Shown here: piece after piece, positions 1 to 4,600 of the stretch
Layout: every line of letters starts with the position of its first letter
Numbering within the stretch: the first letter of the stretch is position 1
Source: Escherichia coli
GTDB lineage: Bacteria > Pseudomonadota > Gammaproteobacteria > Enterobacterales > Enterobacteriaceae
Assembly: GCF_003334405.1 (NCBI RefSeq)
Contig: NZ_QOWM01000028.1
DNA length: 30,887 nucleotides
Reading direction: 5' to 3' (one strand)
Translations under genes and position numbers: made by a program
The notes under the pieces: generated by a model
Told to the model about the DNA's origin: nothing
What the model saw: only the letters and a program-made list of their open reading frames with translations
The model's database searches: none

Positions 1-57
1 TTTCTCTTCAACCGAACCGGCTGTTTGTGTGAAGTGATTCACATCCGCCGTGTCGAT

Positions 58-115
58 GGAGGCGCATTATAGGGAGTTCTCCGCAGGCCGCAATAGAAAA
101 ATTGCAGAAAAATGA
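58..115 (-). promoter_or_regulatory. rrnE P1: rRNA operon P1-type promoter (rrnE P1-like) with A/T-rich UP element, transcribing leftward out of the window
   Basis: Minus strand reads TTGCGG-(16 nt)-TATAAT followed by GCGCCTCCATCGACACGG (GC-rich discriminator), i.e. the canonical rrn P1 core 'CTCCCTATAATGCGCC'. The -10 is the complement of 66..71, the -35 the complement of 88..93, with an A/T-rich UP-like tract at about 94..115. Divergent from purH as in E. coli. Confidence 0.7.
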
Positions 116-264
116 CTGACTGCTGCATTCCCCAGCAAAAGCCCGCTTTATACCTTTTTACGCACAGAGTTATCCACAATCATCAATGTAATTTCTGTAT
201 TTTGCCCACGGTAACCACAGTCAAAATTGTGATCACCATTGAAAGAGAAAAATTCGCGAGCGTT

Positions 265-280
265 GCGCAAACGTTTTCGT
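265..280 (+). promoter_or_regulatory. PurR operator (pur box) in the purHD control region
   Basis: GCGCAAACGTTTTCGT matches the 16-bp PurR box consensus (AcGcAAACGTTTtCnT) and is followed immediately by TACAAT (281..286), a plausible -10. It lies about 110 bp upstream of the purH ATG. Confidence 0.65.
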
Positions 281-317
281 TACAATGCGGGCGAAAAATA
301 AGGATGCCCCGTTAGGG

Positions 318-355
318 GCGTTAGCTGAGTTTTTCGCGAAAAATTCAGCTAACGC
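318..355. repeat. 38-bp near-perfect palindrome (GCGTTAGCTGAgtttttcgcgaaaaatTCAGCTAACGC) in the purH 5' leader
   Basis: Read directly from the sequence: 11-bp arms GCGTTAGCTGA / TCAGCTAACGC around a 16-nt centre that is itself near-palindromic. It ends 32 bp upstream of the purH ATG. Confidence 0.8.
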
Positions 356-387
356 TCTCTGTAATAGTCAAATCCAGGGGATTTACC

Positions 388-1977
388 ATGCAACAACGTC
401 GTCCAGTCCGCCGCGCTCTGCTCAGTGTTTCTGACAAAGCCGGTATCGTCGAATTCGCCCAGGCACTTTCCGCACGCGGTGTGGAGCTGCTGTCTACAGG
501 GGGCACTGCCCGTCTGTTAGCAGAAAAAGGTCTGCCGGTAACCGAAGTTTCCGATTACACCGGTTTCCCGGAGATGATGGATGGACGCGTGAAGACCCTG
601 CATCCGAAAGTACATGGTGGCATTCTGGGCCGTCGCGGCCAGGACGATGCCATTATGGAAGAACATCAGATCCAGCCTATCGATATGGTGGTTGTTAACC
701 TGTATCCGTTCGCCCAGACCGTGGCCCGTGAAGGTTGCTCGCTGGAAGATGCGGTTGAGAACATCGATATCGGCGGCCCAACGATGGTGCGCTCCGCCGC
801 CAAGAACCATAAAGATGTCGCAATCGTGGTGAAGAGCAGCGACTATGACGCCATTATTAAAGAGATGGATGACAACGAAGGATCGCTGACGCTTGCAACC
901 CGTTTCGACCTCGCCATCAAAGCCTTCGAACACACTGCCGCCTACGACAGCATGATTGCCAACTACTTCGGCAGCATGGTTCCGGCTTACCACGGTGAAA
1001 GCAAAGAAGCCGCCGGTCGCTTCCCACGCACGCTGAACCTGAACTTCATTAAGAAGCTGGATATGCGTTACGGCGAGAACAGCCACCAGCAGGCTGCCTT
1101 CTATATAGAAGAGAATGTGAAAGAAGCCTCCGTTGCTACCGCAACCCAGGTTCAGGGTAAAGCCCTCTCTTATAACAACATCGCCGATACCGATGCGGCG
1201 CTGGAGTGCGTGAAAGAGTTCGCCGAGCCGGCATGTGTGATTGTGAAGCACGCCAACCCTTGCGGCGTGGCTATCGGCAATTCCATTCTTGATGCTTACG
1301 ATCGCGCGTACAAAACCGACCCAACCTCCGCATTCGGCGGCATCATTGCCTTTAACCGCGAGCTGGATGCGGAAACCGCACAGGCCATCATTTCTCGTCA
1401 GTTTGTCGAAGTGATTATTGCGCCGTCCGCCAGCGAAGAAGCCCTGAAAATCACCGCCGCCAAACAGAACGTACGCGTTCTGACCTGCGGTCAGTGGGGC
1501 GAGCGTGTTCCGGGCCTCGATTTCAAACGCGTGAACGGCGGTCTGCTGGTTCAGGATCGTGACCTGGGGATGGTCGGTGCGGAAGAACTGCGCGTGGTGA
1601 CCAAACGTCAGCCGAGCGAACAGGAACTGCGTGATGCGCTGTTCTGCTGGAAGGTGGCGAAGTTTGTGAAATCCAACGCTATCGTCTATGCCAAAAACAA
1701 TATGACTATCGGCATTGGCGCGGGCCAGATGAGCCGCGTGTACTCCGCAAAAATCGCCGGTATTAAAGCGGCCGATGAAGGCCTGGAAGTGAAAGGTTCC
1801 TCGATGGCTTCTGACGCGTTCTTCCCGTTCCGCGACGGTATTGATGCCGCCGCCGCTGCGGGCGTGACCTGCGTAATCCAGCCTGGCGGTTCTATCCGTG
1901 ATGACGAAGTGATTGCCGCCGCCGACGAGCACGGTATTGCGATGCTCTTCACCGACATGCGCCACTTCCGCCATTAA
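388..1977 (+). CDS. purH: Bifunctional AICAR transformylase / IMP cyclohydrolase
   Basis: 529-aa ORF starting [27 protein letters not shown], with MGS-like and AICARFT domains recognisable. Length equals E. coli PurH. purD follows 11 bp downstream. Confidence 0.97.
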
Positions 1978-1988
1978 TGGAGCAATAG

Positions 1989-3278
1989 ATGAAAGTATTA
2001 GTGATTGGTAACGGCGGGCGCGAGCACGCGCTGGCCTGGAAAGCGGCCCAGTCGCCGCTGGTTGAGACTGTTTTTGTTGCTCCGGGTAATGCAGGCACTG
2101 CACTGGAACCCGCGCTGCAAAACGTTGCTATTGGCGTGACCGATATCCCGGCGCTGTTGGATTTCGCACAAAACGAAAAGATTGATCTGACCATCGTCGG
2201 CCCGGAAGCGCCGCTGGTGAAAGGCGTGGTCGATACCTTCCGCGCCGCCGGGCTGAAAATCTTCGGCCCAACCGCAGGTGCGGCCCAACTGGAAGGCTCA
2301 AAAGCGTTTACCAAAGATTTCCTGGCCCGCCATAAGATCCCTACGGCGGAATACCAGAACTTCACCGAGGTAGAACCTGCGCTGGCGTATCTGCGTGAGA
2401 AAGGCGCGCCAATCGTCATTAAAGCGGACGGTCTGGCTGCCGGGAAAGGCGTTATCGTGGCGATGACGCTGGAAGAAGCGGAAGCGGCTGTTCACGATAT
2501 GCTGGCGGGCAACGCTTTTGGCAACGCGGGTCATCGCATCGTTATCGAAGAGTTCCTCGATGGCGAAGAAGCGAGCTTTATCGTGATGGTGGACGGCGAG
2601 CATGTGCTGCCGATGGCTACCAGCCAGGATCACAAACGCGTAGGCGATAAAGATACCGGACCAAACACCGGCGGGATGGGCGCTTACTCCCCCGCGCCGG
2701 TAGTAACCGATGACGTTCATCAGCGCACCATGAAACGTATTATCTGGCCAACCGTGAAAGGCATGGCGGCGGAAGGCAACACCTACACCGGTTTTCTCTA
2801 CGCGGGCCTGATGATCGACAAACAGGGCAATCCGAAGGTTATTGAATTTAACTGCCGCTTTGGCGATCCGGAAACCCAGCCGATTATGCTGCGCATGAAG
2901 TCCGATCTGGTTGAGCTCTGCCTGGCGGCCTGTGAAAGCAAACTGGACGAGAAAACGTCCGAGTGGGATGAACGCGCTTCTCTCGGCGTGGTGATGGCTG
3001 CGGGTGGATATCCGGGTGATTACCGCACCGGTGACGTGATCCACGGCCTGCCGCTGGAAGAAGTGGCAGGCGGCAAAGTGTTCCACGCGGGCACAAAACT
3101 GGCGGATGACGAGCAGGTAGTGACCAACGGCGGGCGCGTACTGTGCGTCACCGCGCTGGGTCATACCGTGGCAGAAGCGCAGAAACGCGCCTATGCCTTA
3201 ATGACCGATATCCACTGGGACGACTGCTTCTGCCGGAAAGATATCGGCTGGCGCGCTATCGAACGCGAGCAGAACTAA
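1989..3278 (+). CDS. purD: Phosphoribosylamine-glycine ligase (GAR synthetase)
   Basis: 429-aa ORF starting MKVLVIGNGGREHALAWKAAQSPL, an ATP-grasp protein. Length equals E. coli PurD. Operonic with purH. Confidence 0.97.
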   Translation: MKVLVIGNGGREHALAWKAAQSPLVETVFVAPGNAGTALEPALQNVAIGVTDIPALLDFAQNEKIDLTIVGPEAPLVKGVVDTFRAAGLKIFGPTAGAAQLEGSKAFTKDFLARHKIPTAEYQNFTEVEPALAYLREKGAPIVIKADGLAAGKGVIVAMTLEEAEAAVHDMLAGNAFGNAGHRIVIEEFLDGEEASFIVMVDGEHVLPMATSQDHKRVGDKDTGPNTGGMGAYSPAPVVTDDVHQRTMKRIIWPTVKGMAAEGNTYTGFLYAGLMIDKQGNPKVIEFNCRFGDPETQPIMLRMKSDLVELCLAACESKLDEKTSEWDERASLGVVMAAGGYPGDYRTGDVIHGLPLEEVAGGKVFHAGTKLADDEQVVTNGGRVLCVTALGHTVAEAQKRAYALMTDIHWDDCFCRKDIGWRAIEREQN

Positions 3279-4600
3279 CGCGACAGTTTTGCCAATAGCG
3301 TTTTGCGCGTGATCCCTAACTGACGGGCGGCTTCGGTTTTGTTGCCGCCCGTTTTCTCCAGCGCCGCCAGAATCACCTCTTTTTCCACTTCCACCAACGG
3401 CTGAATATCCTGACTTTGTCCCAGCGGGATCGGCGTACTGGCAATCGCCAGCGGCAGCTCGCGTTCGGAAATATATTCCCCGGTCAGCAGCACCACTGCC
3501 CGTTCCACCGCGTTTTCCAGCTCACGAATATTTCCCGGCCAGTCGTAATGAATCAACAGATCCATCGCCTGGGGCGTAAAACCTTTTACCGCCTTGCGAT
3601 TACGCTCGGCAAAGCGCTGCAGAAAATGGCCAGCCAGCAGAGGGATATCTTCCCGCCGTTGCCGCAGCGATGGTACTTCAATCGCCACCACATTCAGGCG
3701 ATAGTAGAGATCCTGGCGAAAACGCCCGGCATTCACCTCTGCGGCAAGATCGCGATGGGTCGCCGCAATCAGCCGGACATCAACCGAGATAATCTGGTTG
3801 CTACCGACACGCTGAACTTCGCGCTCCTGAATCGCACGCAGCAGACGCACCTGCATCATCGGCGAGATATCGCCAATTTCATCGAGAAACAGCGTGCCGC
3901 CGTCCGCCTCAACAAAGCGCCCTTCCCGGCGTTTATCGGCTCCAGTAAACGCCCCTTTTTCGTGACCGAACAATTCAGATTCCAGCAAGGATTCGTTGAG
4001 TGCCGCACAGTTGAGCGTTACCAGCGGTTTTTCGCTACGTGCGCTACTGGCGTGAATCGCCCTGGCGACCAGCTCTTTACCGGTGCCGGAATCGCCGTGG
4101 ATCAGTACCGTGGCTTCCGATGGCGCGACGAGGGCGATTTCACTGAGCAGGTGTTGCATCGCCGGGCTTTTACCGACCATACCGAACTGGCTGGCAGTCA
4201 CCGCAGGTGTTTCAGCATCAATACTGTGCGTATGCGCGAGCGCTTTTTCCAGCGTCGCCTGTAGGTTATCGAAATCCAGCGGCTTGATGAGATAATCCAG
4301 CGCCCCAGTTTTCAGTGCCTCTACCGCCGTCTCGACGCTGGAGTACGCAGTCATAATCAGCACCGGAATTGCCGGGTTTAACGCTTTGATCTCTTTCAGC
4401 GTGGCGATGCCGTCCATCTCCGCCATTCGCACATCGCAAAGCACAAGATCAAAAACCTGTTCCCGCACCTGCTCCAACGCCTGTCGCCCGCTGTTCGCCA
4501 GCGCGACGTTATAGCCCCAGCCGCGCAGTAAAGCCTGCAAAATAGTGCAGTGGCTAATGTCATCATCCACCACCAGAATATCGATATTATCGTGCGTCAT
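3275..4600 (-). CDS. zraR: Sigma54-dependent two-component response regulator (NtrC family)
   Basis: 441-aa ORF with a receiver domain ([13 protein letters not shown]...), an AAA+ sigma54-activator core ([14 protein letters not shown]) and a C-terminal HTH. ATGA overlap with upstream zraS. Confidence 0.95.

Follow-up and report, generated by a model that had tools for sequence, protein, structure and literature searches.

The window analysed in this study is a stretch of 30,887 nucleotides that as a whole extends from purH through tufB, and the present analysis concerns the DNA at its left end. Positions 1–600 are 100% identical to E. coli K-12 MG1655; a match to them is present in all of the complete E. 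coli genomes (5,426/5,426) and covers at least 80% of the length in 5,419. In the K-12 record, a 16S-tRNAGlu-23S-5S operon on the opposite strand adjoins the left edge of the window. The 16S 5' end of this operon lies 228 bp before window position 1, and the genes beyond it are yjaA, yjaB, and metA, which identifies it as rrnE. Given the complete identity with K-12 and the position of rrnE directly left of the window, the rRNA promoter found here was assigned to rrnE. We are highly confident that positions 1–387 represent the E. coli K-12 control region between the leftward rrnE and the rightward purHD, and we infer that the elements in it form one architecturally constrained unit.

The first-pass annotation of this DNA had described an rrn P1 promoter adjoining the PurR-controlled purHD promoter. 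This is the rrnE P1/purHD locus, which is known. The coordinates given there for the −10 (66–71), the −35 (88–93), the UP region, and the PurR box (265–280) were all correct, and the distance of about 320 bp from P1 to the start of purH amounts to 322 bp from the −10 to the ATG at 388. The claim had been made dependent on an rRNA operon lying on the left; such an operon is present in K-12, and the claim survives. The statement that the upstream activating DNA of P1 is also the upstream region of purH holds by geometry. The annotation was nevertheless incomplete, as it omitted the double DnaA box (158–178), a conserved 15-mer (122–136), and the hairpins of the purH 5'-UTR (306–353). For E. coli K-12, publications already exist on rrnE P1, the pur box of purHD, and the DnaA site, and their identification adds nothing new. 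The features of the region are as follows.

1–56, minus strand: first ~56 nt of the P1 transcript (P1–P2 leader), from the sequence
57–65, minus strand: putative P1 start, A at 57 (by analogy), with the GC-rich discriminator GCGCCTCC
66–71, minus strand: P1 −10 TATAAT, invariant in 114 of 114 distinct upstream modules
88–93, minus strand: P1 −35 TTGCGG, 16-bp spacer; TTGNNN kept across loci
95–117, minus strand: A/T-rich UP-element region by composition, about −38 to −60 of P1; mean column identity 0.75
122–136, no strand assigned: 15-mer GCTGCATTCCCCAGC, centred at −72 of P1, candidate Fis site I position; mean identity 0.96 over 114 distinct modules
148–153, no strand assigned: TTATAC, invariant block (113 of 114 distinct modules); mean column identity 1.00
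158–178, plus strand: double DnaA box tTTACGCACAgagTTATCCACAa, composed of TTACGCACA (158–166), gag, and TTATCCACA (170–178); published ChIP-seq and conservation
181–246, no strand assigned: spacer of the Escherichia/Citrobacter/Kluyvera/Pseudocitrobacter group, longer by 53–75 bp than in most Enterobacterales, from comparison
247–261, plus strand: GAAAAATTCGCGAGC, an A-tract and the conserved CGAGC, putatively at the purH −35/proximal-UP position
265–280, plus strand: PurR operator (pur box) GCGCAAACGTTTTCGT, by motif; the same 16-mer is listed by PurR ChIP-chip
281–293, plus strand: purHD −10 TACAAT (281–286) and GC-rich discriminator GCGGGCG, by conservation; putative start at ~293/294
306–353, plus strand: purH 5'-UTR hairpins, GCCCC-GTTA-GGGGC (306–319) and the long stem GTTAGCTGAG...TTCAGCTAAC (320–353), by RNA folding
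376–390, plus strand: Shine-Dalgarno AGGGGA (376–381) and purH ATG (388–390), from sequence and annotation

The sequence TTGCGG-N16-TATAAT-GCGCC exactly matches a P1-type core, with GCGCC as the discriminator, and the pattern TTG-N19-TATAATGCGCC occurs only once in the 30.9-kb window. The start at A57 was placed by us by analogy with rrnB P1. Positions 94–117, where an UP element is expected (−37 to −60), contain 75% A+T, and the A-tracts of this predicted UP element are conserved. In K-12, P2 (TTGACT..TAATAT) lies just left of the window. A generic sigma-70 scan of positions 1–600 reported zero promoters, because the scanner required 4/6 matches at the −35 and TTGCGG shares 3/6 with TTGACA; since P1 falls below this threshold, we rejected the result of the scan as evidence against it. 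According to Maeda et al. (2015), rrnE surpasses the other six rrn promoters in strength under every condition tested, has five Fis sites in earlier work and >8 by gel shift, and is the operon most reduced upon fis deletion.

Positions 1–94, comprising the P1 core and the early leader, are found in two places per E. coli genome, and positions 95–290 are single-copy. The boundary of the rrn repeat is thus located at about the −35/UP junction, which is why draft assemblies break at the P1/purH locus. Three mechanically predicted ORFs in the region (112–315 on the plus strand, 39–179 and 148–270 on the minus strand) were rejected, because conservation is block-wise and the spacer insertions of 53–75 bp are not multiples of three.

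On the purH side, the operator GCGCAAACGTTTTCGT has one mismatch to the 16-bp imperfect palindrome ACGCAAACGTTTTCGT and is the sole site within 3 mismatches of the pur box in the 30.9 kb. In PurR ChIP-chip (Cho et al., 2011), the site listed for purH-purD is this very 16-mer, and PurR occupied it only with adenine supplied. The pur box is conserved among the enterobacterial genome loci and overlaps the core promoter, directly abutting TACAAT at 281–286. This hexamer is itself conserved, and the 7 nt that follow it average 89% G+C while varying in sequence, which amounts to a conserved, putative GC-rich discriminator at the purH promoter. At the −35 position, the conserved CGAGC is unlike TTGACA and is preceded by a conserved A-tract; no −35 element is recognisable. 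No purH entry was found in the supplements of two TSS data sets. A GC-rich discriminator in combination with a poor −35 is typical of promoters that are kinetically rRNA-like and sensitive to supercoiling and ppGpp, and by analogy we infer that the purH promoter may be of this kind. CRP binding upstream of purH and a two-fold repression of purH by CRP have also been claimed (2023; PMC10199772); only a CRP half-site, TGTGATCAC (229–237), is visible, within the spacer of the E. coli clade.

For the two hairpins of the purH leader (306–353), RNA folding gave a z-score of −4.2. Across 14 genera, the long stem retains its base, GTTAGCTGA/TCAGCTAAC, through compensatory changes, and its apex is variable (34 to >60 nt). 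The GCCCC 5' arm of the first hairpin can alternatively pair with the G-run of the Shine-Dalgarno sequence. Terminator-like matches on the minus strand at 319–306, which corresponds to this first hairpin, and at 272–252 were not above shuffle expectation and were rejected. An Rfam search of positions 1–387 returned no RNA family. Elsewhere in the window, Rfam matches were obtained for a TPP riboswitch before thiC (plus strand, 11640–11740), for the sRNA sroH between thiH and yjaZ (plus strand, 17433–17593), and for "Pseudomonas sRNA P26" in the rplL-rpoB intergenic region (minus strand, 26929–26990).

Between the two promoters, at −101 to −121 of P1 and about −115 to −135 of purH, lies the double DnaA box. 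Box 1 matches TTATCCACA at 7/9 positions and box 2 at 9/9, the two being separated by a 3-bp spacer, and box 2 is the sole perfect DnaA box in the window. A DnaA ChIP-seq peak 124-fold over the control, comparable to that at polA, has been reported at this site, and chromosomal mutagenesis with ChIP-qPCR revealed that both boxes and their 3-bp spacing are required for DnaA binding (Stringer, Fitzgerald and Wade, 2024). The qPCR primers of that study match window positions 90–109 and 191–210. The site was also detected in a second DnaA ChIP-seq study, and the other six rrn operons were without a DnaA peak (Stringer et al., 2024). DnaA is, after PurR, the best-documented protein bound in the shared DNA. 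The 2024 study attributed the site to purH by proximity, and transcription of purH or rrnE was measured in neither ChIP-seq study. Added here are the conservation and the fixed position of the site across Enterobacterales. Among 114 distinct modules, box 2 is perfect in 108 (mean column identity 0.99) and box 1 has a mean column identity of 0.89, whereas the 12 bp next after box 2 have a mean column identity of 0.41. Box 2 lies 104 bp from the P1 −10 in every one of the 114.

Fis candidates in the upstream region of P1 were sought over positions 95–300 with the pattern GnnnRnnWnnYnnnC and with the full consensus. The scan gave 10 matches, compared with 6.8 ± 2.4 in shuffled sequences; this is no enrichment, so Fis sites II–V cannot be placed by such a scan. 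The 15-mer at 122–136 is the only strongly conserved candidate in the P1 upstream region; it agrees with the Fis motif at 4/5 critical positions and is regarded here as a candidate site. It is centred at −72, which, following Aiyar et al. (2002), we take to be the position of Fis activation. The invariant TTATAC block at 148–153 might be a partial third DnaA box or a part of a Fis site. At the purH −35, GAAAAATTCGCGAGC matches 5/5 critical Fis positions, and its G at −7 is not conserved. The Fis sites of rrnB P1 are located at −71, −102, and −143. In the geometry of the short spacing class described below, GAAAAATTCGCGAGC would be centred at −143 of rrn P1, presumably the position of rrnB Fis site III.

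A PurH-based scan of species-representative genomes yielded 80 loci, and a DNA-pattern scan of metagenome contigs yielded 120 further loci. In 48 enterobacterial drafts, the contig ends 155–674 bp upstream of purH, as expected since assemblies break at the rRNA operon; in the longer contigs of Pantoea IMH and Tatumella, a full 16S is found upstream of purH in the E. coli orientation. The P1 core was present in 42 of the 49 enterobacterial genome loci, the contigs of the other 7 stopping before the expected position, and in every metagenome purH locus with enough upstream DNA. No rrn sequence was found in the 3 kb upstream of purH in Vibrionaceae, Pasteurellaceae, Aeromonas, Shewanella, and others. 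In Vibrionaceae, Pasteurellaceae, and other groups without an adjacent rrn, DnaA boxes upstream of purH are no commoner than chance.

The spacing census included 130 enterobacterial loci (120 distinct sequences), which are not independent of one another. Spacings between the P1 −10 and the pur box fell into four classes only:

144–146 bp, 87 loci
198–199 bp, 10 loci
207–210 bp, 27 loci
219–220 bp, 6 loci

In most Enterobacterales the pur box begins 145 bp from the P1 −10, which places the purH −35 at about −147 to −152 of rrn P1; the promoters are separated by ~183 bp in these bacteria and by ~236 bp in E. coli. This close spacing reinforces the view that P1 and purH have their upstream DNA in common. 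Within the short class, the spacing between P1 and the pur box has an sd of 0.40 bp vs 27.4 bp for the spacing between the pur box and the ATG. The latter takes 34 distinct lengths, from 91 to 279, across all classes.

The additional DNA of the Escherichia/Citrobacter/Kluyvera/Pseudocitrobacter group is placed directly after TTATCCACA and before GAAAAATTCGCGAGCG. This clade spacer forms 17 clusters below 88% identity, which are barely alignable and yet keep their length. A tandem duplication of 11 bp is found in the 220-bp class; relative to the 209-bp class, E. coli is shorter by 10 bp. In 59/59 sampled E. coli genomes, the segment corresponding to window positions 60–290 is 231 bp long. Of the 19 substitutions in the O157:H7 allele, 18 fall within about 186–247, with no indel, and outside the spacer the allele is nearly identical to K-12, with a single G-to-C at 142. 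Its spacer is more diverged from K-12 than that of E. albertii, which points to import of a short patch or to unusual mutation pressure.

The length classes differ from the short one by +54, +64, and +75 bp, that is, by about 5, 6, and 7 turns, in steps of about one helical turn. These turn-sized classes are suggestive of phase conservation. They may derive from only 2–3 indel events, and statistical support for the phasing is accordingly modest. Judging from the sequences compared, the geometry linking the two promoter modules is under a real constraint. A rigid, turn-quantised spacing speaks for some face-of-helix constraint, which diffusing supercoils alone would not impose, and it suggests that the proteins of the upstream block (DnaA and/or Fis) may act in a face-of-helix-dependent manner on the purH promoter and possibly on P1.

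In the explanation that we favour, rrnE P1 is a classic rRNA promoter, whose UP element would serve the alpha subunits of RNA polymerase and which Fis would activate at the conserved 15-mer at −72. A DnaA dimer is bound at the double box between the two promoters, and PurR with its corepressor occupies the 16-bp operator, which fills the −35/−10 spacer of purHD, thereby blocking RNA polymerase. The DNA from P1 to the DnaA box forms a rigid block, whose distance to the purH promoter is fixed in most Enterobacterales and otherwise changed by about 5, 6, or 7 turns. We also put forward a more far-reaching, tentative model, which at present we consider unlikely to be correct, in which rrn P1, Fis site I, the double DnaA box, and purHD constitute one helically phased nucleoprotein unit across Enterobacterales, and in which DnaA, possibly together with Fis, co-ordinates the synthesis of rRNA and purines with the state of the replication initiator. 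In such a phased unit, rrn P1 may be no less a target of the DnaA site than purH.

The main rival of the phased unit is plain adjacency, in which the two promoters are regulated independently and the spacing reflects densely packed independent sites and a few chance indels; we regard this as a serious possibility, although short of an even chance. Each promoter has its own complete regulators (UP, Fis, ppGpp, and NTPs for P1, and PurR for purHD), the unconserved spacer of 53–75 bp fits between the modules, and our literature search found no paper naming rrnE and purH together. Adjacency is also favoured by a natural insertion: in E. coli EP91B (NZ_CP149810.1), an IS3-family transposase at 2630–3940, corresponding to about window positions 180–188, sits between the DnaA box and the purH promoter and separates the modules by about 1.3 kb. 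As the insertion is tolerated in this one isolate, the arrangement is not essential. However, the 16 variable nucleotides of the short class and the hypervariable spacer of the long class keep their length while the length of the nearby leader varies widely, and the packing of sites leaves a spacer that is free in sequence and fixed in length unexplained. Somewhat more doubtful, in our view, is a coupling through supercoiling or Fis, in which heavy leftward transcription of rrnE would supercoil the shared DNA negatively and/or purH would be modulated directly by the Fis array of P1, so that purHD output follows the activity of the rRNA promoter. The divergence of the promoters at the separations given above, the conserved GC-rich discriminator and poor −35 of purH, and the full agreement of GAAAAATTCGCGAGC with the critical Fis positions are consistent with it. 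Set against this are the lack of enrichment of Fis-like matches, the unconserved −7 G of that candidate, and the helical phasing, which the diffusion of supercoils does not require; the literature search found no experimental data on such coupling.

Two further explanations concern the DnaA site itself. It may functionally belong to rrnE P1 or to both promoters, which would tie the output of rRNA to replication-initiator status. The invariant distance to the P1 −10 points in this direction, while the distance from the box to purH differs by 53–75 bp between clades, and the 2024 assignment to purH followed proximity only. The absence of the boxes upstream of purH in groups without an adjacent rrn also agrees with it, although lineage and rrn adjacency are confounded in this comparison, both being specific to Enterobacterales. 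Given that no DnaA peak occurs at the other six rrn operons and that DnaA targets cluster in nucleotide metabolism (nrdA and nrdD, with guaB claimed earlier), which favours purH, we consider a role at P1 improbable. Far less credible still is that the site acts as an element of the DnaA cycle like DARS or datA, making use of Fis binding nearby and of the negatively supercoiled DNA upstream of rrnE. Its ChIP signal (124x) is similar in size to those of polA and DARS, and at DARS2, Fis is published to contact DnaA directly in a complex stimulated by supercoiling. Nonetheless, the locus contains only two boxes, both direct, with no inverted box and no IHF-like motif in 130–250, and for want of the inverted third box we set the DARS or datA reading aside.

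Overall, the useful result of our analysis is comparative: throughout a bacterial order, a strong DnaA site keeps its position between the promoter of an rRNA operon and a purine operon, and the spacing between the modules is kept within 1 bp or shifted by whole turns, while the sequence of the spacer is highly variable. If the phased unit is true, ribosome synthesis and the supply of purines would be linked with each other and with the status of the replication initiator, and this link is directly testable, as the DnaA-box mutant strains DMF69–81 exist.

Among known systems, rrnB P1 resembles rrnE P1 in its 16-bp spacer, TATAAT, GC-rich discriminator, and A/T-rich UP region, in a candidate activator site that precedes the UP element by one turn, and in driving an rRNA operon with a second promoter, P2, some 120 bp further downstream. 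The upstream region of rrnE P1 differs in containing a divergent protein-coding promoter and in having a double DnaA box in the place of rrnB Fis site II, at −101 to −121. The double DnaA boxes at polA, nrdA, mioC, DARS1/2, and datA (Stringer et al., 2024) likewise consist of two direct 9-mers 3 bp apart, with a perfect TTATCCACA as the downstream box and with both boxes and the spacing needed for binding, whereas the rrnE/purH site sits between two divergent promoters.

The guaBA promoter is a purine-pathway promoter with a PurR operator over its core and reported DnaA, Fis, and CRP inputs; it also has an UP element and growth-rate-dependent control. The purHD promoter is similar in its PurR and DnaA sites, the claimed CRP effect, the upstream A-tract, and the GC-rich discriminator. 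The DnaA box of guaB lies over the core promoter and found no confirmation in ChIP-seq (Stringer et al., 2024), whereas the DnaA boxes of purHD are located far upstream and are common to an rRNA promoter.

As regards torsional coupling, the locus may be compared with ilvY/ilvC-type pairs, in which back-to-back promoters are likewise a few hundred bp apart and one of them is very active. Divergent promoters coupled by supercoiling include ilvY/ilvC and leu-500 with its divergent partners. At rrnE/purHD, in contrast, only the geometry and the GC-rich discriminator are seen, and the turn-quantised spacing points to protein-DNA geometry over torsion alone.
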